33,835 nucleotides of DNA from Candidatus Zambryskibacteria bacterium RIFCSPHIGHO2_01_FULL_43_25 (GCA_001823695.1 MHVD01000009.1:1-33835); one strand, 5' to 3'. Shown: positions 17,684-26,275, numbered from the stretch's first letter. Translations and numbers: made by a program. The notes: generated by a model not told the origin, from the letters alone.

Positions 17684-17754
17684 AGCGGGGTGGAGGAGTA
17701 GTACCTCGTCAGGCTCATAACCTGGAGACATCAGTGCAAATCTGGTCCCCGCAA
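17684..17754 (+). tRNA. tRNA-fMet (CAT), initiator, divergent D and T loops
   Basis: A1:A72 mismatch, A11-U24, anticodon arm TCAGG-CTCATAA-CCTGG, acceptor GCGGGG/CCCCGC. Confidence 0.85.
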
Positions 17755-17761
17755 CAAGGAA

Positions 17762-17795
17762 AACAGAAAATGGCCCGATTGGGTCATTTTCTGTT
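17762..17795 (+). terminator. Bidirectional terminator-like hairpin after tRNA-fMet
   Basis: AACAGAAAATGGCCC-GATT-GGGTCATTTTCTGTT. Confidence 0.75.
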
Positions 17796-17843
17796 CCAAA
17801 ATCATTTTTTGTTATATAGTGTTTTTTGTTTGTCGGGGTAGCT

Positions 17844-17892
17844 CCCCAAACGAAATAACAGTCGACAAGCGACTTATTTCGTACGGGGCAAG
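17844..17892. mobile_element. 49-bp palindromic insertion in the D-stem of the outer tRNA-Met
   Basis: CCCCAAACGAAATA..TATTTCGTACGGGGCAAG; removing it restores GCTCAGTTGGT; homologous to 22624-22672. Confidence 0.75.
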
Positions 17893-17914
17893 CAGTTGGT
17901 TCTTTGGACTTTTA

Positions 17915-18025
17915 CCCCGTTACAGGTTAAATGACGGAGTAGCTCAGTCGGTAGAGCACGGGACTCATAAGCCCGGGGTCGTGGGTTCAATCCCCACCTC
18001 CGTCACATATAAACCTGTTTCGGGG
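17915..18025. mobile_element. 111-bp inverted-repeat-bounded element carrying tRNA-Met
   Basis: CCCCGTTACAGGTT (17915-17928) / AACCTGTTTCGGGG (18012-18025), 12 of 14 complementary. Confidence 0.7.
17933..18005 (+). tRNA. tRNA-Met (CAT), probably elongator (Ile2 not excluded); intact inner copy
   Basis: Full cloverleaf: GACGGAG/CTCCGTC, GCTC/GAGC, CTCATAA loop, GTGGG-TTCAATC-CCCAC. Confidence 0.92.
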
Positions 18026-18134
18026 CATAAGCCTCAGACAGTGGTTCGACTCCACTCATCGGCACAAAAATTATTATAATTTGAAATATGTAAACAGTAA
18101 TAGTAATGTGCTGTCACGTGGTATAATGTAATTA

Positions 18135-18821
18135 GTGCCGATATACAAAAAAGTAAACAGGAGCTTTTTTAAAAAATGGTCACCAAGAATGGCATATATT
18201 TTGGGTTTCTTTGCTGCTGATGGAACAATGATTGCAAACAACAGAGGGGCGTATTTTATTGAATTTCATGTCACTGATAAAGATATAATCTTGAAAATTA
18301 GGAAAGTACTGGGGTCAAATCATAAGATATCAATCCGTGACCGAGGAGTTAAAGAGTGGAAACTTGGGTATCGGTTACAAATTGGAAGTAAGGAAATGTT
18401 TAACGATTTATCGTTATTGGGTTTTAAACCTAACAAATCTAAAAAAATGGAAATGCCCGAAATTCCTACAGAATTAGTCAGAGATTTTGTTAGAGGATAT
18501 TTTGACGGCGACGGCTGCGTCTATTTTAAGAAACATTTTAGAAAAGATAGAAATAAATATAGTTGGGTTTTTACAACCAGGTTTACTTGTGGTACAAGAA
18601 GTTTTTTAGAGTCATTACATAATTTGTTGGATTCCTATGTAACTGGTGGTTATATTACTAACAAACAAAGGGGATATGAACTGGTATTTAGTAAACATGA
18701 CAGTCTTGCTTTATACAAGTTAATGTATCATACTGGTTGTCAAAGTTTATATCTAAATAGAAAATATAGACTTTTTAACAAGGCAATAAAAACCTTGTGC
18801 GGTTCGGATATGCGATCGTAG
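18135..18821 (+). CDS. Free-standing double-motif LAGLIDADG homing endonuclease-like protein
   Basis: YILGFFAADG and FVRGYFDGDG motifs, LGFKPNKS, L.RK; stop codon lies inside tRNA-Asp. Confidence 0.88.
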   Translation: MPIYKKVNRSFFKKWSPRMAYILGFFAADGTMIANNRGAYFIEFHVTDKDIILKIRKVLGSNHKISIRDRGVKEWKLGYRLQIGSKEMFNDLSLLGFKPNKSKKMEMPEIPTELVRDFVRGYFDGDGCVYFKKHFRKDRNKYSWVFTTRFTCGTRSFLESLHNLLDSYVTGGYITNKQRGYELVFSKHDSLALYKLMYHTGCQSLYLNRKYRLFNKAIKTLCGSDMRS

Positions 18822-19102
18822 CTCAACTTGGTTAGAGCACCCGCCTGTAGACGTGCAGCTTCTCCGCTAAAGCGGAGTTGAAACTCTCTGGGATAACGGT
18901 GAAGGCTAAATTCATCATATGATGAACATGCGAATACCGTGGGAACCCCGCTTCGTGGGCGGGGGCGCCGTAGAGACTAGATACCGGAGTACCTAAATTC
19001 GTTAACTGACGAGCACGGTAAAGATATAGTCCACGCCATTATGAAAATAATGGGTATAGTGCACGCGGGAGGTTGCCGGTTCAAGTCCGGTCGGTCGCGC
19101 CA
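18812..19102 (+). tRNA. tRNA-Asp (GTC) split by a group I intron: exons 18812-18848 and 19062-19102
   Basis: Joined exons give GCGATCG/CGGTCGC acceptor, CCCGC-CTGT^CAC-GCGGG anticodon arm, G73 and encoded CCA. Confidence 0.92.
18849..19061 (+). ncRNA. 213-nt group I intron at anticodon position 35/36, no internal ORF
   Basis: Exon ends in U, intron ends in G; P1 CTGT/GCAG with U-G pair; P10 CGTG/CACG; P7 GACTA (18975-18979)/TAGTC (19027-19031) in AAGATATAGTCC; P9 with GAAA loop. Confidence 0.9.
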
Positions 19103-19177
19103 TGAACCATACGGTTCATGGCTGTCCTGCATCGTATGGTGCAGGACGCCATGGTGTATATTGTATGGTATTACACC
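19099..19177. repeat. Three tandem short palindromes with GTAT/ATAC loops
   Basis: GCCATGAACC-ATAC-GGTTCATGGC; GTCCTGCATC-GTAT-GGTGCAGGAC; degenerate GGTGTA..GTAT..TACACC. Confidence 0.7.
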
Positions 19178-19201
19178 CACGAATTAGTATGATTAATGTA
19201 A

Positions 19202-19453
19202 ATGTATTACGTTTACATTCTTAAATCAGAGGCCGATAAAAAGTTATATATCGGCTATTCTGCAAATTTAAAGAAAAGATTTCAGGAACATCAAGATGGG
19301 AGGGTTAGGTCTACAAAGCCAAGAAGGCCTTTTGAGCTTATTTTCTATGAGGCATATAAAAGTAGACTAGATGCCAAAAGAAGAGAAAAGTATTTCAAAA
19401 CTGATAAAGGGAAAACGACCATAAAAACTATGTTAGAAAAATCTTTAGCTTAA
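19202..19453 (+). CDS. Small GIY-YIG nuclease family protein
   Basis: YYVYIL...LYIGYS.NLKKR...H, ST..RRP, AKRREKYFK. Confidence 0.9.
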   Translation: MYYVYILKSEADKKLYIGYSANLKKRFQEHQDGRVRSTKPRRPFELIFYEAYKSRLDAKRREKYFKTDKGKTTIKTMLEKSLA

Positions 19454-19500
19454 ACTCTACGATTAGGGATTTTTTGGTTCTAACTTGGTATACTCTTTTG

Positions 19501-19929
19501 ATGAGTTACAACGACAAAAGCCAAATAATCAGACACTATGACATGGTAAGTCCCTACTATTATTCTCTTTGGGGAGAACATCTTCACCACGGTTATTGGG
19601 AAACTGGAAAGGAGACAAAGGAAGAAGCCCAGCTGGCTCTGACAAAACATTTGGCTAAAGTAGCTGGTATAAAGCACAGCAGTAAAATTCTGGATGTAGG
19701 ATGTGGTTTTGGCGCGAGTAGTATTTATCTTGCTAAGTACCTAGATGCCAAATGTACAGGGGTCACTATTTCTCCAGTCCAAGTTAGTATGGCGCAAAAT
19801 GCGGCAAAAAAAGAAAATGCCCTGTGTGAATTTTTGCTTATGGATGCAGAAAAAATGGAATTTAATGAACCATTTGATGTAATCTGGTCAATAGAATCAA
19901 TTTCACATTACACAAATACTGAAAAGTAG
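19501..19929 (+). pseudogene. 3'-truncated class I SAM-dependent methyltransferase (tocopherol/sterol MT-like)
   Basis: WGEHLHHGYW, ILDVGCGFG, FDVIWSIES..H, then an abrupt stop at the start of a 68-bp repeat. Confidence 0.75.
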
Positions 19930-19997
19930 TTCTAACATTGCTCACCACAGTAGTGGGATATAAATCACTACGGGGCAGGCTAGTTCGCGCGTCGGTT
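19930..19997 (+). repeat. 68-bp direct repeat, copy 1
   Basis: 67/68 identical to 21160-21227; contains a GTAGTG/CACTAC hairpin ending CGGGGCAGG. Confidence 0.9.
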
Positions 19998-20120
19998 TTT
20001 CTCTAGTGTTTAAGCCATTAAAATCTATTGAAGAGGGGGTTAATTGTTCTCTTTTACACCATTAAGTGTTATGGTAAAATTAAAGTAGAGGGTGTTTTAT
20101 TATTAATAGGCTTATTTTTT

Positions 20121-21137
20121 ATGAAGAAAAAAATTGTTTTTTCGGCGATAATTTTATCGTTTTTCTTTTTTGTTTCTAGCCAAGTCTATGCTCAATCTTC
20201 CTACTCATCTCTTAATGAAATTGGTAAACAGTTAGAACAAGCTTACCAACAACTCCAAACACTAACACAAAACCTAACTGGCAAACTTACGGCAGCAACA
20301 GCAGGCTATAACACTCCAACAGTTGATTTAAAGGCAAATACTTTTGATGGCCCAATAACAGTTTCTTCTGGTTCAAATGTAATACTTTATTGGGTTGCTA
20401 CGAATACAGACTCTTGTACTATTTCTGGACCGAATTTGAGGACTTTTTTAGAAGGAGACAGTTCAATGCCTTTCAGCGGATCAGTAAATTCAGGGTTCTT
20501 AACAATGAATACAACGTTTACCATAACATGCACTGGTCCTGGGGGTACTGCTTCAGATAGCGTAACGATTAATGTGCTTACAATCAGCCCACCAATCATT
20601 TCAGACTTGAAAGTAAACTATTCTACTAGCCCCGTTACAGTTGCTTCCGGTTCAAGTGTTTCTATTAGCTATGTCGCAAGAAAAGCGGATTCATGTAATG
20701 TTTCTGGACCACTTGCGTGGAAATATTCCGTAAAAACTTCCGAACCATATCCGTCAACAGAAGTTTATATACAGGGTTGGGCAGGGTCAACAGCTCTGAC
20801 CGCAAACACAACATTTACTATTACTTGCACGGGTCCTGGAGGTACTTCTTCAGCCAGCGTAACTGTTTATGTGGCGAAGGGGGTCCCTTCAGTCACAATC
20901 TCAGCCAATCCAACGACTGTTATTACAGGTCAATCATCGATACTCTCTTGGTCTTCAACTAATGCAACTTCATGTACAGCAGGGGGAGGATGGAGTGGAT
21001 TAAAGTTAACAAGCGGATCTCAAGTAGTCGCACCGACTCAAAGAACAACTTATACTTTAACCTGTTGGGGTCCTGGAGGTAATATTTCAGGTAGTGTAAT
21101 AATTGATACTACACTCAATAAAACATTGATACGGTAA
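20121..21137 (+). CDS. Secreted Ser/Thr-rich surface protein with three Ig/PKD-like repeats
   Basis: Signal peptide (VYA|Q), three repeats ending T(F/Y)T(I/L)TCxGPGG. Confidence 0.8.
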   Translation: MKKKIVFSAIILSFFFFVSSQVYAQSSYSSLNEIGKQLEQAYQQLQTLTQNLTGKLTAATAGYNTPTVDLKANTFDGPITVSSGSNVILYWVATNTDSCTISGPNLRTFLEGDSSMPFSGSVNSGFLTMNTTFTITCTGPGGTASDSVTINVLTISPPIISDLKVNYSTSPVTVASGSSVSISYVARKADSCNVSGPLAWKYSVKTSEPYPSTEVYIQGWAGSTALTANTTFTITCTGPGGTSSASVTVYVAKGVPSVTISANPTTVITGQSSILSWSSTNATSCTAGGGWSGLKLTSGSQVVAPTQRTTYTLTCWGPGGNISGSVIIDTTLNKTLIR

Positions 21138-21159
21138 AATACAAGTAACAATCTCGCAA

Positions 21160-21227
21160 TTCTAACATTGCTCACCACAGTAGTGGGATATAAATCACTA
21201 CGGGGCAGGCTAGCTCGCGCGTCGGTT
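21160..21227 (+). repeat. 68-bp direct repeat, copy 2
   Basis: 67/68 identical to 19930-19997. Confidence 0.9.
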
Positions 21228-21238
21228 ATACTTAATAT

Positions 21239-21511
21239 ATGGAATTTAATTTTCTCACTGCGGGGCTTATATTTTTTGCGTATATATTAATTGATGGGAT
21301 GTATGCCTACTATACTCAGTCTATTGTAAAAAAGAGAGCTGTCATCTCTGCAACCACAGGTGCCCTAATGCATTTTCTAATTGCCTTCGGAGTTCTTAAC
21401 TATGTTCAAAATTTCTTGTATGTTGTCCCTCTAGCTCTAGGTTCTTGGGTCGGAACTTATCTTGTAGTAAAGAATGACCGCAGTTCTAACATCATCAAAC
21501 CTCGGACGTAG
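21239..21511 (+). CDS. Small hypothetical membrane protein (about 3 TM)
   Basis: Hydrophobic 90-aa ORF with an AT-rich ATG context. Confidence 0.65.
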   Translation: MEFNFLTAGLIFFAYILIDGMYAYYTQSIVKKRAVISATTGALMHFLIAFGVLNYVQNFLYVVPLALGSWVGTYLVVKNDRSSNIIKPRT

Positions 21512-21579
21512 CTTATGGGTTAAGCAGGGTTGTGTAGTAGAATGCTATAATTAAAATACTTATTAGTTTTTTGTTTATT

Positions 21580-21948
21580 ATGAACAACACACAAAAAGCA
21601 GTTTGGGCTCTTCGTATAGGTGTGGCAGGCGAATTTTTGGGACATGGAGTATTTGCTCTGCAAGGCAAACAGGATTGGATAAACTGGTTTTCAAATTTTG
21701 GCGTAAGCAACCCGAGCACCGCGTCAACGCTTCTGGTCTTGGTTGGAATATTGGACCTGCTGGTTGCGCTCGTTGTTTTATTCAAACCGCTCAAGCCAGT
21801 TTTGCTGTGGGCGGTGTTTTGGGGCTTCTGGACGGCTCTTGTGCGCCCGATTGTTGGTCAGCCGATTTGGGATTTTGTAGAACGGTTTGCAAACTGGGCC
21901 GCGCCTCTAGCTTTGTATTATTTGTTGAGCAACCAACCTAATAATTAA
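21580..21948 (+). CDS. DoxX-like membrane protein
   Basis: LRIGVAGEFLGHG, several TM helices, DFVERFANWAAPL; TGCTATAAT promoter upstream. Confidence 0.7.
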   Translation: MNNTQKAVWALRIGVAGEFLGHGVFALQGKQDWINWFSNFGVSNPSTASTLLVLVGILDLLVALVVLFKPLKPVLLWAVFWGFWTALVRPIVGQPIWDFVERFANWAAPLALYYLLSNQPNN

Positions 21949-22017
21949 TTCTACAATTTTTGTCGTAGTTACCCGATATCCTTTGGTAAAGGCAGAATTT
22001 TCTAATATCATATTAGA

Positions 22018-22503
22018 ATGCGTTTGAATGTTCCATATTTCAAACAGGATTTCATATATTCCTGCGGTCCTGCGGCTGTCCAAATGGTTTTGGCTTATTT
22101 CCACATAAGAGAGTCAGAAAGCAATCTGATTGAAGAACTAGGTGTTAGTGAAGAGATGTGGTCATCTAACAGTCTGATGATAGAAGTGTTTAGGAAAAGA
22201 GGTTTATACTGTTATGTGAATAAAGATGGCACCTTGGAACAGATAAAAAACTTTTTGGAAGAAGGAATTCCGGTCGTAGTAAATTACATAGAACCATCAG
22301 CCGAGGACGGTCACTTCGCGGTGGTTGTGAATCTGACGGATAGCGTGATTGTTTTGAATGACCCGTGGAATGGAGAAAATTTTGTGTTGAATAGGGAAGA
22401 GTTTCTGAATCGCTGGCATTCAAAATATGACGATGCTTCTAGGTGGTATTTGGCAGTTTCTGATAAAGATTTTGACCTGGGCAAAAGATACAGGCCAGTT
22501 TAA
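22018..22503 (+). CDS. Peptidase C39-like cysteine protease
   Basis: VPYFKQ...SCGPAA (Q, C), GHFAVV (H), LNDP (D). Confidence 0.85.
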   Translation: MRLNVPYFKQDFIYSCGPAAVQMVLAYFHIRESESNLIEELGVSEEMWSSNSLMIEVFRKRGLYCYVNKDGTLEQIKNFLEEGIPVVVNYIEPSAEDGHFAVVVNLTDSVIVLNDPWNGENFVLNREEFLNRWHSKYDDASRWYLAVSDKDFDLGKRYRPV

Positions 22504-22623
22504 ATGTTTCCCGTAATGGTATTATAAGTCCACGGTCGTGTATTTATTATACCGTCGTTGAAAATAGTGTTTCTGTATATTATGATTCGTCTGTTCTTTC
22601 TGATTTTTTATGCCGTTGTAGCT

Positions 22624-22672
22624 CCCCAAACAAAATATCGGTTAACAAGCAACCTATTTTGTACGGGGCAAG
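22624..22672. mobile_element. 49-bp palindromic insertion, homologue of 17844-17892 at the same tRNA position
   Basis: CCCCAAACAAAATA..TATTTTGTACGGGGCAAG. Confidence 0.75.
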
Positions 22673-22679
22673 CAGCTGG

Positions 22680-22719
22680 CCCGCCCGCAACGCATGAGCG
22701 GCTAGCAATGGCGAGCGGG
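22680..22719. mobile_element. 40-bp CCCGC...GCGGG palindromic insertion in the D-loop
   Basis: CCCGCCCGC...GCGAGCGGG directly before GAGC of the D-stem. Confidence 0.65.
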
Positions 22720-22727
22720 GAGCATGT

Positions 22728-22802
22728 GCCAGAGTAGTTCAGTGGTAGAACGCCTTCATGGTAAGAAGGAAGTCGGGAGTTCAATTCTCCCCTCTGGCTC
22801 CA
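22728..22802 (+). tRNA. tRNA-Thr (GGT), intact inner copy
   Basis: GCCAGAG/CTCTGGC, GTTC/GAAC, CCTTC-ATGGTAA-GAAGG, TTCAATT loop, encoded CCA. Confidence 0.93.
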
Positions 22803-22981
22803 GAATTAGACCTTCGGATTTTTGACCAGCCATTTCGTGGGCGGCGCACAGTGCCACCCATGCTTCGGACCCTTCTGTTTCTTTTTTTACAAAAAAACAA
22901 AAATGTCTTTTGTGTCGGTTTGTCAAGGTATTGGCTGATGGATATATATACTTATCAACATCCGTACGATATAATAAAATC

Positions 22982-25432
22982 ATGAAAAATAAAATTATTA
23001 GTTTGGCAATAGTGGGATTATTATTAGGAGGTTCATTAGGAGTACCATTAGTGCAGGCACAAACATCGAGTCAGCAGTCAACTCTTTTAGCGTCCTTTAG
23101 CCAAATTAATGAGGCTTTTATACAACTTTTAGCCTCGGTTATAAATGCCCTGGCAGGGCAAGAAGAAGAAAATATAGAAAATGACAATACTACTCTTCCC
23201 CCAGTTTTGAGTCTCTCGCAGTACACAGTTGATCTTCTCAATATCGCGAATGAGTTGAAACAGGCCCCAGCCGCAAAAAAGCAGGCAGCTACAGACCGTT
23301 TGTCAGAATTTGTTCAAATCAGAAAAGATGCCATGCTCCAAGAAATAAAAAATAACCCACAAGCGGTTATTAATAACGCTCTCCCCGCTTGGGCAGTCTC
23401 GCAATTACCACAGAATGTTATCAGCTTTGTAGAACAGCGGAAACAGATCCGCGGTAAATTTCAATATCTGGACGTTCATTACGGTGACTTTTATACCGGC
23501 ACAGCCGCTAATGAATTTTATGTAACCGAAAGTGGTACTGGCAAGCGCTATCGGGTTCATCTTACGGGAAGCCCGCAGGCCCTCACCGGCGATATGGTTG
23601 TCATTGACGGCATAATTCTTGACGATCAAATCGCGACCACAGAAAAATCAATCCAGGTTATTTCTTCTCCTAATAGGACAAGGTCTTCGACGTCGGCCGC
23701 TACCCCTTCTCTCTTGAGTAAAATTATAAACGCACTTGGTCGCAAGGTCGCCAATGCGCAAACAACTACCCCGATTCCCAAAAAAGTAGCGGTTATCATG
23801 TTTAATTGGCAGAACGATACGCGCACTCTGTCAGTGTCGGCCGCCAAGGGGACCGTTTTTACCAACTCGAACTCATCCAACAGCTTTTACAAAGAGAATT
23901 CATTCGGCAAAATTGAACTCGTCGGCAAATACCAATCAGATGGCGATGTTTTCGGTATGGTTACAGTGCCTTATGACAATTCAAACTGTAGCACTATGTA
24001 TAGCGTTTGGTCTGACGCCGCGGATGCCGAAGTGCAGAGATTGGGTTTTGATCTTTCAGGATACGATATAAAAACATATTTGTTTCCTTCAGTTGCTTGC
24101 GGATGGTCGGGTATAGCAGAAGTTGGTGGTTATCCAGCTCGGTCTTGGATCAGAAGTACCGATTTGGGCGTCATAACCCATGAATTGGGTCATAATCTAG
24201 GTTCCCATCATGCAAGCTCTTGGTCGTGCACAGAAAGCGGGGTTAGGGTGCCGATAGGCCAAGATATGAATTGTGTGATAGGGGAATATGGCGATCCGTA
24301 TGATGTTATGGGTTTAGGCGGCATGAGACATATAAATAATTCTCACAAAGATACGACCGTCTACTTCTCCTCACTGGATTGGCTAGATGATCAAAATATA
24401 TTTACAATAGATCGCAATATTGCACCTGATGCCACATACACCATTACTCCGATTGAATGGTCGTCTGCCGGCGTACAGGCGCTTCGCATTCCCAAAGATA
24501 TTTCCCCAACCGGATATCCTGAAACTTATTATTATCTTGAATTTCGCCAGCCTTTTGGATTTGATGACTTTGCCGCTTCCAGTCCTCCGGTAAATGGAGT
24601 AACTATTCGCATCGCAACTGATTACAATTTTATCGTGAAAAGCAGGCTGGTAGATACTACACCATCAACTTATGATTTTACTGACGCTCCCTTGGCAGTA
24701 GGCAAGACATTTACTGATCCATATAAACAGATTAACGTAACCACGCTCTCGGTTGCACCAGCAGAAGCTCAAGTGCGGGTATCTTTTGGGGCAGTGCCTT
24801 GTATACAAGCGAATCCTTCATTCTCGATAAATCCGACTAGTGCCTCGCTTTATGCCGGACAATCGACGTCATTTGCTTATACTCTTACCAATAATGATAC
24901 AACATCTTGTCCTTCCTCTAATTTCAGTATCACTCCGACTCTTCCAGCTGGTTTTAGTCAAAGTCCTTCACCTATAAATCATTCTCTGGCCGGCGGGACG
25001 GGAGTTTCGGGAACGCTTATCATAAGCTCTCCAACTGCCGCAACCGCAGGTTCTTACTCTATAACCGAGACGGCTCAAAATACTTCTGTCCCAGGCAACT
25101 ATCAATCAACGGCAACTCTTACCATGAATATCCTTTTGCCTGATACGATTCTGCCTATTGTCACGATCAATTCGCCCGCCAATGGAGCCACTGTGTCAAA
25201 AGGAAATGTTCAGATTGTCGTTTCGGCATCCGATGCAAGCGGAATAGCTCAAATACAAATCTTGGTTGATGGTGTATTGAAAAAAACCTGCTTTAACACT
25301 ACTTCTTGTTCAGGAACAGTGAAAGCGAATGGCCTGACAGTAGGAACGCACAATATCACCGCGCAGGCTACGGATAAAGGCGGGCCTGTCGCGAATACCG
25401 CAACCGCTTCGATTACTATTATCAAAAAGTAG
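22982..25432 (+). CDS. Secreted zinc metalloprotease (M11/gametolysin-like) with C-terminal Ig-like domains
   Basis: Signal peptide, HELGHNLGSHH zinc motif, EYGDPYDVMG Met-turn, YYLEFR, Ig-like tail (PIVTINSPANGATV, SDASGI). Confidence 0.85.
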   Translation: MKNKIISLAIVGLLLGGSLGVPLVQAQTSSQQSTLLASFSQINEAFIQLLASVINALAGQEEENIENDNTTLPPVLSLSQYTVDLLNIANELKQAPAAKKQAATDRLSEFVQIRKDAMLQEIKNNPQAVINNALPAWAVSQLPQNVISFVEQRKQIRGKFQYLDVHYGDFYTGTAANEFYVTESGTGKRYRVHLTGSPQALTGDMVVIDGIILDDQIATTEKSIQVISSPNRTRSSTSAATPSLLSKIINALGRKVANAQTTTPIPKKVAVIMFNWQNDTRTLSVSAAKGTVFTNSNSSNSFYKENSFGKIELVGKYQSDGDVFGMVTVPYDNSNCSTMYSVWSDAADAEVQRLGFDLSGYDIKTYLFPSVACGWSGIAEVGGYPARSWIRSTDLGVITHELGHNLGSHHASSWSCTESGVRVPIGQDMNCVIGEYGDPYDVMGLGGMRHINNSHKDTTVYFSSLDWLDDQNIFTIDRNIAPDATYTITPIEWSSAGVQALRIPKDISPTGYPETYYYLEFRQPFGFDDFAASSPPVNGVTIRIATDYNFIVKSRLVDTTPSTYDFTDAPLAVGKTFTDPYKQINVTTLSVAPAEAQVRVSFGAVPCIQANPSFSINPTSASLYAGQSTSFAYTLTNNDTTSCPSSNFSITPTLPAGFSQSPSPINHSLAGGTGVSGTLIISSPTAATAGSYSITETAQNTSVPGNYQSTATLTMNILLPDTILPIVTINSPANGATVSKGNVQIVVSASDASGIAQIQILVDGVLKKTCFNTTSCSGTVKANGLTVGTHNITAQATDKGGPVANTATASITIIKK

Positions 25433-25441
25433 ACACGTTCT

Positions 25442-25479
25442 TAAGCTAAAAATCGTTCCTCGGGGCGATTTTTAGCTTA
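25442..25479 (+). terminator. Terminator-like hairpin
   Basis: TAAGCTAAAAATCG...CGATTTTTAGCTTA perfect 14-bp arms. Confidence 0.8.
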
Positions 25480-25645
25480 TGGAGAAAGACCGCACAGTAC
25501 GAATGAAAAAGTCAGGATAAACTTTTACTCGCTGGCCGTCCAATACCCTACCATCCGTTCGAATACTTGGAAAACAAGTGACGGGGTTTCCTTAGTTCAG
25601 GAATTTTTGATAAAGTGAGTTCGAGCACAGTCGTAAAGATACTCA

Positions 25646-25706
25646 AGTATTGCCACCTTAGCTCAGTCTTGCCCGCCAAAATTTTGCCAGAGTAGCTCAG
25701 TTGGTA
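25646..25706 (+). repeat. 61-bp direct repeat, copy 1 (copy 2 at 25804-25864)
   Basis: AGTATTGCCACCTTAGCTCAGTCTTGCCCGCCAAAATTTTGCCAGAGTAGCTCAGTTGGTA identical in both places. Confidence 0.9.
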
Positions 25707-25797
25707 CCCGCCCGAACGACTGACATCGTTCAGTCGGGCGGGGAGCATTCCCATGGTAAGGGAAAGGTCATCGGTTCAATCCCGATCAACGGCTCCA
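25686..25797 (+). pseudogene. Chimeric tRNA-Thr(GGT): foreign 5' end, 36-bp D-loop hairpin (25707-25742) and the original 3' half (25743-25797)
   Basis: TTCCC-ATGGTAA-GGGAA anticodon arm and intact T arm; local 5' GCCAGAG has three mismatches against CAACGGC. Confidence 0.75.
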
Positions 25798-25825
25798 AGA
25801 TTTAGTATTGCCACCTTAGCTCAGT

Positions 25826-25948
25826 CTTGCCCGCCAAAATTTTGCCAGAGTAGCTCAGTTGGTAGAGCGACGCACTCGTAACGCGTAGGTCCCCGGTTCA
25901 ATCCCGGGCTCTGGCTCCAAAAACTAGCAAAAACTTAGGCGGGTGAAG
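25826..25948. mobile_element. Palindromic element carrying tRNA-Thr(CGT)
   Basis: CTTGCCCGCCAAAATTTTGC ... GCAAAAACTTAGGCGGGTGAAG imperfect inverted arms. Confidence 0.7.
25844..25919 (+). tRNA. tRNA-Thr (CGT), intact inner copy
   Basis: 76-nt cloverleaf GCCAGAG/CTCTGGC, CTCGTAA loop, encoded CCA. Confidence 0.93.
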
Positions 25949-26044
25949 CAGAGCGACGGTATCGTAAACCGTAGGTCCCCGGTTCAAGCCCGGGAGGTGG
26001 CTCTTGAAAAATATGTGGTTGTTAGTAATATAAGTAACGCACCT

Positions 26045-26275
26045 GGGTGAGAGCGGTGACTCGCAGTACCTAAGGGCTTGAGGAGCTATGATGGTGAGGG
26101 CACAGTCCAAACTCACTGGAGCTCGCGGGACTGCCGCCGGAGACTTGTTACTCCTTGGAGTAGATACCCAAGGTGATGGAGGGGGAAAGCCGACACTGTT
26201 GGCGAAGTCCCAAAAGCCAGGAACAGGTCGTTGTTCTGGCGCGAGGCGCCGCTCACCGCCGGCGCCTTTTTTTTG
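26045..26275 (+). ncRNA. Candidate structured non-coding RNA, family not recognised
   Basis: GC-rich intergenic block; closing stem GAGCGGTGACTCGC/GCGAGGCGCCGCTC, several internal stems, T8 tail. Confidence 0.5.

Follow-up and report, generated by a model that had tools for sequence, protein, structure and literature searches.

Transfer RNA genes are classic landing sites of mobile DNA, as elements that insert there can restore what they break. Among the closest described systems are the genomic islands and prophages of tyrosine integrases, which target a tRNA gene, restore its broken function and leave a displaced fragment that marks the end of the insert. Here, another form of restoration is described in a stretch of 33,835 nucleotides (nt) from Candidatus Zambryskibacteria bacterium RIFCSPHIGHO2_01_FULL_43_25 (MHVD01000009.1:1-33835; the window), in which three tRNA genes are each interrupted by an intact tRNA gene of the same anticodon. 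Such an arrangement, in which an intact inner tRNA gene lies between the 5' and 3' parts of an outer tRNA gene, is referred to as a nest. Nests differ from tyrosine-integrase islands in that a whole tRNA is supplied rather than a 3' end, and in that relics of the old gene remain on both the 5' and the 3' side. The breaks, moreover, are located in the D-loop or at positions 33/34, the inserts can be as short as about 110 nt, and there is no integrase in or near them. The initial annotation of the window stated that integrative elements supply only a replacement end; this is correct, and the simpler pattern with a displaced fragment is also seen in this genome at several tRNA genes.

Other systems share some of these features. 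Y1 enzymes, known from IS200/IS605 and from REP/RAYT systems, act on single-stranded hairpins and give insertion without target duplication. The hairpins found in the present nests resemble REP/REPIN-RAYT and IS200/IS605 mini-elements, as they are short, GC-rich and dispersed palindromes without target duplication at the D-loop site, in a genome that contains Y1 genes; their membership of either group is putative. They are unlike REP/REPIN in having fixed positions inside tRNA genes, in carrying, in some cases, a tRNA gene at the apex, and in a clamp sequence that is common to distant classes of Patescibacteria. To our knowledge, no REP with a gene as passenger has been described, and none came up in the open-access literature searched. 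Excerpts of one report list a conserved tetranucleotide, GTAG or CGTC, at a foot of the palindrome among the features of REP/RAYT (PMC3733652).

A further precedent is SegB of phages T4 and T6. According to excerpts of two reports, this GIY-YIG endonuclease, encoded among tRNA genes, recognises tRNA genes by their T-loop motif and cuts them there; it promotes the spread of the tRNA genes around its own and brings about the segmental amplification of a complete one (PMC2330249; PMC13096335). The present genome is similar in that GIY-YIG genes lie beside tRNA genes, tRNA genes are targeted, and whole tRNA genes are spread or duplicated. It is unlike the SegB system in being cellular instead of phage, in open reading frames (ORFs) that hold the catalytic domain only, and in the hairpin repeats that bound the inserts. 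The product differs as well, being a nest inside the old gene and not a tandem amplification or an allele replacement.

Group I introns are known in tRNAs of the candidate phyla radiation (CPR), as an excerpt of one report states (PMC8172020). Bacterial group I tRNA introns are similar to nests in being anticodon-loop insertions, and one probable example, in tRNA-Asp, is present in the cluster described below. The hairpin inserts, however, are 37–50 nt long when empty and have no ribozyme core, and the rescue is by a second gene at the DNA level instead of by splicing. The split, permuted and multi-intron tRNAs of archaea, with their bulge-helix-bulge motifs, share non-canonical interruptions (including in the D-loop) and short helical inserts with the nests, which differ in their bacterial host and in the intact duplicate gene that is always present. 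In the predicted structure of one of the hairpins (hp1, see below), the internal loop is symmetric (2x2), unlike the 3-4-3 form of a bulge-helix-bulge. An archaeal-type intron was rejected, since the hairpin borders are not bulge-helix-bulge motifs and every interrupted gene has an intact twin. No description of nested tRNA genes or of tRNA-carrying hairpin elements was found in the open-access full-text literature.

The window's own genome (G000) consists of 603 kb in 23 contigs and is 93% complete; the genomes of its relatives measure 0.4–1.1 Mb. Genomes, contigs of G000 and individual loci are given below as G, C and L numbers. Intact tRNA genes were called with ARAGORN and with Rfam (RF00005, cut-off 29 bits). 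The outer pieces were read from the sequence, after which the insertions were removed in silico and ARAGORN was rerun. Hairpins were tested by DNA folding, with z as the comparison with shuffled sequence. Four intact tRNA genes were found by ARAGORN and Rfam in the cluster region: an initiator-like tRNA-Met, tRNA-Met, tRNA-Thr(GGT) and tRNA-Thr(CGT). The initiator-like gene (17684–17755; Rfam 50.7 bits) is the first gene of a conserved cluster and has an equivalent position in relatives (L004, L008 and L011). Around the other three, all three nests of the initial annotation, each with an inner tRNA of the same anticodon, are present (ARAGORN, Rfam 65–69 bits, with the outer pieces in the sequence). 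All parts of the cluster described here are on the plus strand.

Nest A lies in the old elongator tRNA-Met gene (outer A, 17832–18064). Its 5' end, read from the sequence (17832–17844), comprises the acceptor strand GTCGGGG, TA and the 5' strand of the D-stem (GCTC); the acceptor resembles the GTCGGCG or GTCGGGG of tRNA-Met in the relatives G007 and G008. After C13, the D-loop contains a hairpin insert of 49 nt, hp1 (17845–17893; z = -5.0). The remainder of the 5' half (17894–17914), identified by comparison with the tRNA-Met of G007, consists of the D-loop AGTTGGTT, a decayed 3' strand of the D-stem and the anticodon-stem strand GGACT, and runs to U33. The left inverted repeat CCCCGTTACAGGTT and a 4-nt linker (17915–17932), which pairs with 18012–18025, precede the inner, intact tRNA-Met(CAT) with acceptor GACGGAG (17933–18006; ARAGORN; Rfam 68.8 bits). 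This is followed by a linker and the right inverted repeat AACCTGTTTCGGGG (18007–18025; from sequence and folding). The stems enclosing the inner gene fold with z = -5.8, and the inverted repeat was absent, at up to 3 mismatches, from the other 85 of the 86 family genomes. The inner gene is thus placed directly 5' of the anticodon of outer A, at position 33/34. The 3' half of outer A resumes at the anticodon with CAT-AA, GCCTC, the T-arm, the acceptor CATCGGC and A (18026–18064); it was found as an orphan T-arm in a genome scan and matches the tRNA-Met of G007. Inner and outer copy are identical at 50/73 positions. Outer A was not recognised by ARAGORN after in silico removal of the inserts, because the 3' strand of the D-stem is lost and one acceptor pair is broken.

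Nest B lies in the old tRNA-Thr(GGT) gene. The 5' end of outer B, read from the sequence (22612–22624), has the acceptor GCCGTTG, TA and GCTC, and this acceptor is identical in the tRNA-Thr(GGT) of G034. A second copy of hp1 (22625–22673; z = -2.5) occupies the same D-loop position as in outer A. The two copies are 82–85% identical, with compensatory changes in the stem; hp1 has these two copies in the genome, and further copies were found in four relatives (G011, G002, G014 and G010). The next stretch of sequence (22674–22725) holds the remainder of the D-loop (AGCTGG), a hairpin with weak folding, hp2a (22680–22719; z = -0.9), and the 3' strand of the D-stem with positions 26–27 (GAGCAT), at which point outer B is cut. 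The 5' part of outer B therefore covers 22612–22725, and is followed by GT and by the inner, intact tRNA-Thr(GGT), which has the acceptor GCCAGAG and a D-loop of the short type (22728–22802; ARAGORN; Rfam 67 bits). Between this gene and the 3' part of outer B there are 2.8 kb, including the cargo, an ORF of 840 aa with Peptidase_M11-like and Big_7 domains according to Pfam (22910–25432). Directly before the 3' part, between D-loop position 21 and the 3' strand of the D-stem, lies the hairpin hp2b, CCCGCCCG...CGGGCGGG (25707–25742; z = -4.7). It has six copies in the genome, the five others being on C4, C2, C17, C15 and C21, and also occurs in relatives. The 3' part itself, read from the sequence (25743–25797), starts with GAGC and contains the anticodon arm with GGT (GAGCAT-TCCC-ATGGTAA-GGGAA), the T-arm and CAACGGC-T-CCA. 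The acceptor strands of outer B form 7/7 pairs. Its 3' region (25728–25786) gives a partial Rfam tRNA match of 26.6 bits, below the cut-off, and after removal of the insertions ARAGORN recognises a tRNA-Thr(ggt). Inner and outer copy of nest B share 54/73 positions.

The cargo ORF has a patchy distribution, with homologues in 23/201 genomes of the order (G000 included) and a best identity of 33%. No related locus was found in a search of genome contigs, and the genome search returned distant homologues only. None of the seven loci of homologues that were fetched has a tRNA-Thr nearby; one has a tRNA-Leu. Downstream of the cargo, a repeat search found a perfect 61-nt copy (25646–25706) of 25804–25864, which contains the spacer, the 5' part of outer C, its left repeat and the first 21 nt of inner C (see nest C below). 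As assembled, this copy forms, together with hp2b and the 3' part of outer B, a chimeric tRNA-like stretch with a GCCAGAG 5' part (25646–25797), which is rejected by ARAGORN and is non-functional.

Nest C lies in the old tRNA-Thr(CGT) gene (outer C, 25810–26002). The 5' part, read from the sequence (25810–25825), comprises GCCACCT, TA, GCTC and AGT; GCCACCT is also the acceptor of tRNA-Thr(CGT) in G034, G007 and G031, and of the genome's own tRNA-Thr(TGT). The left terminal repeat CTTGCCCGCC with AAAATTTT (25826–25843), a sequence that recurs elsewhere, leads to the inner, intact tRNA-Thr(CGT) with acceptor GCCAGAG (25844–25919; ARAGORN; Rfam 65.4 bits). On the right (25920–25948; from sequence and folding), a linker and the terminal repeat ...AAAAACTTA-GGCGGGTGAAG follow, so that the inner gene is succeeded by AAAACTAGCAAAAACTTA-GGCGGGTGAAG and then by C-AGAGC. 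The stems around the inner gene fold with z = -3.0. The 3' part of outer C, read from the sequence (25949–26002), holds the 3' strand of the D-stem, the anticodon arm with CGT, the T-arm, AGGTGGC and T. Its anticodon arm is perfect, the acceptor strands GCCACCT and AGGTGGC form 7/7 pairs, and with the cassette removed ARAGORN calls tRNA-Thr(cgt). Inner and outer copy are identical at 57/73 positions. The exact CTTGCCCGCC...GGCGGG cassette was found in G000 alone among the 86 family genomes, besides one unrelated match in G067, and the events are therefore recent in the lineage. Taken over the three nests, the initial annotation was right that inner and outer acceptor stems differ (GACGGAG/GTCGGGG, GCCAGAG/GCCGTTG and GCCAGAG/GCCACCT, respectively), so that the pairs are not simple tandem duplicates. 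The palindromic insertions that it described are likewise real, with fold z values of -2.5 to -5.8 (hp2a, at -0.9, excepted), and belong to dispersed hairpin families.

The history of the outer copies was revealed by the relatives. The initial annotation had proposed to look for relatives with the uninterrupted outer tRNA at the same locus, and these exist: G034 (L004) and G007 (L008) have a compact Met-Met-Asp-Thr(GGT)-Thr(CGT) cluster. The acceptors there are GCCGTTG or GCCAATG in Thr(GGT), GCCACCT in Thr(CGT) and GTCGGCG or GCCGGGG in the elongator Met and, compared by sequence, these stems are those of the window's outer copies. The 3' part of outer C is identical to the tRNA-Thr(CGT) of G031 at 53/53 nt, and the 3' part of outer B is 88–89% identical to the tRNA-Thr(GGT) of G002, G003 and G008. 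The spacer between Thr(GGT) and Thr(CGT) measures 12 nt here (from the 3' part of outer B to outer C) versus 10–13 nt in relatives. These comparisons show the outer pieces to be the original, vertically inherited tRNA genes of the conserved cluster. An ancestral cluster of a few hundred bases now covers 8.3 kb through insertions.

The inner copies are replacements and not local duplicates. Identity between inner and outer copy is 62–78% in four nests of the genome, and 94% in a Pro pair described below. Both inner Thr genes have the acceptor GCCAGAG, unlike the genome's own tRNA-Thr(TGT), which is of the outer type. The best matches of the inner Thr(GGT) come from other families of the order (G167 at 90%, G277 and G441 at 85%), where this short-D-loop type is resident at the same cluster position; within its own family, a match was found in 1/6 genomes sampled, at 82%. 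Among the inner genes, only the two Thr genes carry CCA. A tRNA retro-copy is improbable, with no match to the reverse transcriptase family PF00078 in G000 (93% complete) and CCA present on these two inner genes only. The outer copies, in turn, show different degrees of decay: outer A and the chimera are unrecognisable, an outer Pro has lost its anticodon, and an outer Leu has two acceptor mismatches.

Nests are more widespread than first claimed, as two more were found on other contigs of G000. The Pro(TGG) nest on C19 has its inner gene within an outer tRNA-Pro to which it is identical at 67/71 positions. The anticodon of the outer gene is replaced by the insert and the anticodon loop is damaged; the insert has the terminal repeat of nest C (CTTGCCCGCC-AAAATTTC...AAATTTA-GGCGGGTGAAG). 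The Leu(CAA) nest on C20 has its inner gene within an outer tRNA-Leu(CAA) of a different acceptor, GCCGAAG. This insertion lies between U33 and C34, with the flanks CCCGCCCG... and ...CGGGCAGG; ARAGORN calls Leu(caa) once the insert is removed. Both types of Leu(CAA) have matches in the family, so that either copy may be the ancestral one. The CTTGCCCGCC hairpin occurs at five sites in the genome, and empty forms of it lie at C8:18889-18932 and C19:234-274.

The arrangement also occurs in other Patescibacteria. The left junction of nest C was searched in metagenome contigs and in one genome per species. The 17-mer search gave 82 matches in 596 Gb versus about 70 expected, so that chance accounts for most of them, and the majority are in GC-rich unrelated genomes. 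The repeat CTTGCCCGCC...GGCGGGTGAAG was found after the D-loop sequence GCTCAGT in seven loci (L093, L098, L100, L106, L109, L114 and L123), whose record titles name Saccharibacteria, Falkowbacteria, Parcubacteria, 'Patescibacteria group' and one untitled metagenome-assembled genome. The same repeat and D-loop site are also listed for L051 and L053 (the latter being identical to L114). Three of these loci (L093, L114 and L123) are nests of Val(CAC) in Val(CAC), with the complete inner tRNA gene within the hairpin. L098 and L106 have the hairpin without a tRNA, in the 5' relic of a tRNA(CAT) or Ile(GAT) gene; the relic stops at about position 33–35, and an intact gene of its own kind comes next. 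L109 has a hairpin-bearing 5' relic (identity not called) and then an intact Val(GAC). In L051/L054, the 5' half of a Val(TAC) gene contains an empty hairpin and precedes an intact Val(TAC); in a third Val(TAC) copy, an hp2-type hairpin lies between GGTTA and GAGC. In L100, a direct repeat of 53 nt (GCTCAGT-hairpin-TTAGAGCGCC) flanks a Val(GAC) and a GIY-YIG ORF, and the host relic, with the insert in its anticodon loop, looks like Ala(TGC), which gives an anticodon mismatch. An intact tRNA-Met of G007 is bordered by two remnants of the same gene, a 5' one of 14 nt and a 3' one of 18 nt.

The anticodons match in 8/9 nests in which both can be read: Met, Thr(GGT), Thr(CGT) and Leu(CAA) here, L093, L114 and L123, and the Val(TAC) of L051. 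The sole mismatch is L100, and two further nests, Pro here and Met in G007, match by sequence. The cases outside G000 were found via the hairpin and not via the anticodon, in a small survey that was seeded with one hairpin family, and many hairpins in tRNA relics are empty. Viral contigs were scanned with the left and right junction motifs in two scans; a phage vector was rejected, as none of the 36 loci obtained is in a tRNA context.

Two observations on hairpins concern other places. In G002 (G002:C2:40866-40914; L139), an hp1-type hairpin and 43 nt were seen at the start of a gene that, by eye, resembles that of ribosomal protein S19. On either side of the insert, 31 nt of the gene start are directly repeated, and therefore an intact gene follows; the pattern of duplicating what is broken is thus also seen in a protein gene. 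Another hairpin, CCCCGCCTGCGC(C/T)GAGGCTTCGGCGGGCAGG, is nearly identical in different families of the order, namely in L025 (G167), where it lies about 700 nt downstream of Thr genes, and in G000 at C8:18954-18979.

The sites of insertion are the same from locus to locus: after D-loop position 16/17, at 21/22 and at 33/34. The D-loop site after GCTCAGT is the same in nine loci and shows no target duplication, but 3–4 nt of the D-loop are missing. A single strand folded as a cloverleaf would leave the insertion points unpaired. Y1 enzymes are compatible with such constant positions in the loop-coding regions, with short GC-clamped palindromes in several copies and with the lack of duplication at the D-loop site. 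Three matches to Y1_Tnp (PF01797) are present in the 603 kb (C15:65829-66356, C19:1844-2533 and C21:9687-10325). One of the genes is an IS200/IS605 equivalog (119.6 bits), a 229-aa protein has as its best NCBIfam match the REP-associated tyrosine transposase (REP_Tyr_transpos; 51.6 bits, below the cut-off of 80), and the third Y1_Tnp match is weak. GC-clamped hairpins were seen directly upstream of the C15 gene, at C19:234 and at C21:12372.

A classical integrase-mediated island was rejected for the nests. Pfam detected no integrase among the ORFs at 15.4–28.2 kb of the window, and the single PF00589 match of G000, a tyrosine recombinase, lies on C19 (C19:21416-21931). The only serine recombinase of the genome was seen at C6:1371-4594 (a frame of 477 aa), 2.5 kb from a tRNA-Gln(ctg) that has a GIY-YIG ORF 53 nt upstream; this region may be another element at a tRNA gene.

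Nuclease genes are also found close to the tRNA genes. Between nest A and tRNA-Asp lies a LAGLIDADG homing-endonuclease-like ORF (18135–18821; Pfam LAGLIDADG_3 48.1 bits, LAGLIDADG_1 25.8 bits), the only such locus in the genome. The tRNA-Asp(GTC) gene (18812–19108) has a probable group I intron of 213 nt (18849–19061; Rfam Intron_gpI) between anticodon positions 35 and 36. The intron scores 42.3 bits, below the Rfam cut-off of 50, and the same intron in G008 scores 52.1 bits. The gene was missed by ARAGORN because the intron splits the anticodon between 35 and 36; spliced in silico, it is called as tRNA-Asp(gtc). One Logan contig joins 18848 to 19062, which represents an intron-less form in the same samples. 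A group-I-like intron was also seen in the tRNA-Thr(GGT) of G002. A GIY-YIG nuclease ORF of 83 aa (19202–19453; Pfam GIY-YIG 64 bits) starts 94 nt after tRNA-Asp. It is one of 13 GIY-YIG matches in G000, which make up 12 loci; the ORFs are of about 85 aa and hold the catalytic domain only. The tRNA genes adjoining such loci are those of Asp, Cys, Ser(tga), Gln(ctg) and Arg(tcg).

Several tRNA loci of G000 contain partial copies of a different kind. Displaced second copies of the last 17–25 nt, which start in the T-loop, were seen 125–175 nt downstream of six intact genes, namely Ser(cga), Ser(gct), Lys(ttt), Gly(tcc), Leu(gag) and Ile(gat) (C8:7950-8299, C11:5191-5420, C17:58800-59165, C19:12050-12350, C22:1480-1824 and C10:1870-2100). 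The spacers between gene and fragment are homologous across tRNAs (Lys with Leu; Ser with Ser and with Met of G007/G008; Gly with Thr of G003) and contain an inverted T-loop-like motif. These spacers of 125–170 nt gave no Rfam match beyond the tRNA itself and chance-level ones. At C4:7620-8115, two 5' fragments of tRNA-Cys(gca), of 16 and 33 nt, lie upstream of the intact gene. The 33-nt fragment ends inside the anticodon, and a GIY-YIG pseudogene with one in-frame stop lies between it and the intact gene. An orphan 3' half similar to tRNA-Arg(CCT), with the anticodon arm, the T-arm and CGGGGGC-A, lies on the minus strand at C8:18757-18830 and has GC hairpins upstream; no 5' half of it was detectable and no intact Arg(CCT) gene was found in G000. 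The tRNA set includes Ile(TAT), and Ala(CGC) is the sole Ala gene found. Ala(TGC) and Ala(GGC) were undetected in G000, also in a relaxed scan for a hairpin-interrupted copy, and the missing Ala gene may lie in the unassembled 7%. Within the window, a direct repeat of 73 nt (19930–20002 and 21160–21232; 96% identical) contains an hp1-like hairpin that ends in ACGGGGCAGGC. Its two copies enclose an ORF of 369 aa with internal repeats and come after a methyltransferase ORF (19474–19929), which matches its Pfam families over their first half only.

Given these results, the outer copies can be read as relics and the inner copies as their compensation, with hairpin elements as the agents, and this account is given slightly better than even chances of being right. 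The anatomy of the nests, the descent of their outer copies, their recurrence, the target sites that they share and the existence of Y1 genes are shown by the data; that hairpin and tRNA move as one, by which enzyme, and that survivorship causes the match are inferred from sequence. DNA would insert into the loop-coding part of a resident tRNA gene, either in the D-loop, at the border of D-loop and D-stem or at 33/34 in the anticodon loop; the inserted DNA would be bounded by a GC-clamped inverted repeat and carry a complete tRNA gene of the same anticodon. The inner gene would then take over the work, and the outer halves would be left as relics at various stages of decay. The inverted repeats belong to hairpin families similar to REPs or to miniature inverted-repeat transposable elements, which are dispersed in the genome and hit the same D-loop sites in distant Patescibacteria, and Y1 transposases of the IS200/REP type may move them as single strands. 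Because the genomes hold one gene per tRNA species, an insertion would be lethal unless a functional gene for the same tRNA comes in with it or already adjoins; the match between inner and outer anticodon would come about mainly through survivorship. The dead relic may then collect empty hairpins (hp1 twice at the same site, hp2a and hp2b) and unrelated DNA (L100), and decay (outer A, Pro, Leu and L114). Such a course explains the anticodon matches, the cassette restricted to G000 and the range of decay states. The mismatch of L100 also fits, because the relic already carried an empty D-loop hairpin as well as the further insert in its anticodon loop.

A number of observations weigh against relics and compensation through hairpin elements. 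This account does not explain how a tRNA gene comes to be present at the tip of a hairpin, nor the near-identity of the Pro pair, whose likeness fits copying from the target itself better than import. The initial annotation had proposed a mini-element system that inserts into D or anticodon arms and brings a complete tRNA, sometimes with cargo. The interruption of D-loops and anticodon loops, the complete tRNA of the same anticodon and a single case of cargo (the 840-aa ORF) stand, but movement as one unit does not follow, as hairpin-plus-tRNA cassettes were seen only within tRNA genes, and none of them twice. The arms on the left and right pair into one hairpin, whereas IS200/IS605 elements have a separate hairpin at each end. 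No target motif of 4–5 nt and no GTAG tag was established, the copies not being aligned for the tag. The outer copies of L093, L123 and nest C have flawless stems, so that either the events are very recent or some function is left. Nest B has no enclosing inverted repeat and is flanked by direct repeats of hairpin plus GAGCAT, and it looks more like recombination at a hairpin than like transposition. The genes for GIY-YIG, LAGLIDADG and HNH nucleases are strongly associated with nest loci and could be the real drivers, and the junction at 25646–25743 may be mis-assembled.

This last point relates to the question of whether the nests were made by the assembler, which might have joined the tRNA genes of different strains at shared words. 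In favour of this, the window comes from an assembly of 23 contigs and contains both the perfect 61-nt repeat (25646/25804) and the repeated hairpin of 37 nt (hp2b). The assembly was compared with Logan contigs from four runs of four studies. With 0 differences, these cover 17695–17979 and 17978–18858, which include both junctions of nest A, and they also bridge 21184/21675–22842 (the 5' part of outer B and inner B) and 22822–25626. No listed Logan contig piece covers 25626–25974, and the loose ends at 25707 and 25744 derive from other copies of hp2b. A metagenome contig of 1613 nt (L052) is 100% identical to 25707–26085 over 379 nt, and this stretch spans hp2b, the 3' part of outer B, the spacer and the entire nest C. 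To the left of hp2b, L052 differs from the window and has an HNH_3 endonuclease ORF and an N-terminal fragment of a resolvase; only 27 nt of that side occur in G000, beside the hp2b copy on C4. At hp2b, it could be that one or the other assembly was mis-joined or that strains truly differ. For the nests as such, an artefact is very improbable, since, besides the bridged junctions of nest A, the bridged left junction of nest B and the copy of nest C in L052, the same architecture recurs in separate records from other organisms and on two further contigs of G000.

The chief biological rival is replacement driven by homing endonucleases, which we regard as unlikely, though with a real chance of being correct. 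A GIY-YIG, LAGLIDADG or HNH enzyme would cut resident tRNA genes, and the break would be repaired from a donor (another strain, the sister chromosome or a paralogue) that contains the nuclease and neighbouring tRNA genes. As homology would be limited to short tRNA segments, repair would end inside the tRNA and leave whole or partial duplicates, and the hairpins would be secondary settlers in dead copies, or recombination sites. It was found that 5/12 GIY-YIG loci lie at most 100 nt from a tRNA gene, versus 0.34 expected, and none of 20000 permutations reached five. The presence of a LAGLIDADG and a GIY-YIG ORF inside the cluster points the same way, as do the GIY-YIG pseudogene between a duplicated 5' half and the intact tRNA-Cys, the GIY-YIG ORF that shares the 53-nt direct repeats of L100 with Val(GAC), another GIY-YIG ORF that abuts the relic of L098, and the HNH_3 ORF to the left of hp2b in L052. 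The displaced 3' fragments of Ser (two genes), Lys, Gly, Leu and Ile, which begin in the T-loop, are also in line with it, as are the direct repeats around nest B and the precedent of SegB in phages T4 and T6, as given in excerpts (PMC2330249; PMC13096335). However, the short GIY-YIG ORFs have no DNA-binding domain, so that site-specific cutting by their products is only putative, and the inserts of nests A, C and Pro, and of L093, L114 and L123, have no nuclease gene. In addition, break repair does not predict a tRNA placed precisely at the apex of a conserved hairpin, as it is in nests C, Pro, L093, L114 and L123. The nest may instead be a functional two-in-one gene, although this is improbable. 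One transcript would be made, from which the inner tRNA is released by RNase P and 3' processing, and the outer halves, joined through the acceptor stem and the GC-clamped helix, would work as a split tRNA; alternatively, the helix would be a processing stalk. Outer C and the outer Val(CAC) of L093 and L123 do keep perfect acceptor, anticodon and T stems, the stems of L093 and L123 differ by paired changes, the 3' part of outer C equals a relative's live gene at all 53 positions, and the helices around the inner tRNA vary among lineages yet stay paired (14 bp in L123). Against this, damage is present in outer A, Pro, Leu and L114, and 3 kb with a protein gene separate the two parts of outer B. 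At the hairpin site, the D-loop has lost the GG that the tRNA elbow requires, and the outer copy would be redundant with the inner one, while relatives manage with uninterrupted genes. The intact stems may reflect recent events, given that the cassette is found only in G000 of 86 family genomes. If true, this would be the first bacterial split tRNA, made without splicing, and the hairpin would be a conserved processing module and not a parasite.

The findings have practical consequences. The relics, the chimeras and the intron-bearing tRNA-Asp escape standard tRNA finders, and therefore tRNA counts, completeness estimates and inferences on codon usage may err. The hairpin repeats at tRNA loci are possible sites of assembly mis-joins. 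The fixed target sites and the conserved clamp, on the other hand, offer a direct handle on the Y1 and GIY-YIG proteins. The restoration seen here, by a whole tRNA gene of the same anticodon inside the broken one and often at the tip of a conserved hairpin, is apparently undescribed. If the unit of hairpin and tRNA is mobile, it would be a new kind of self-compensating element and, in organisms with one gene per tRNA species, a route for the exchange of tRNA genes between lineages of Patescibacteria.

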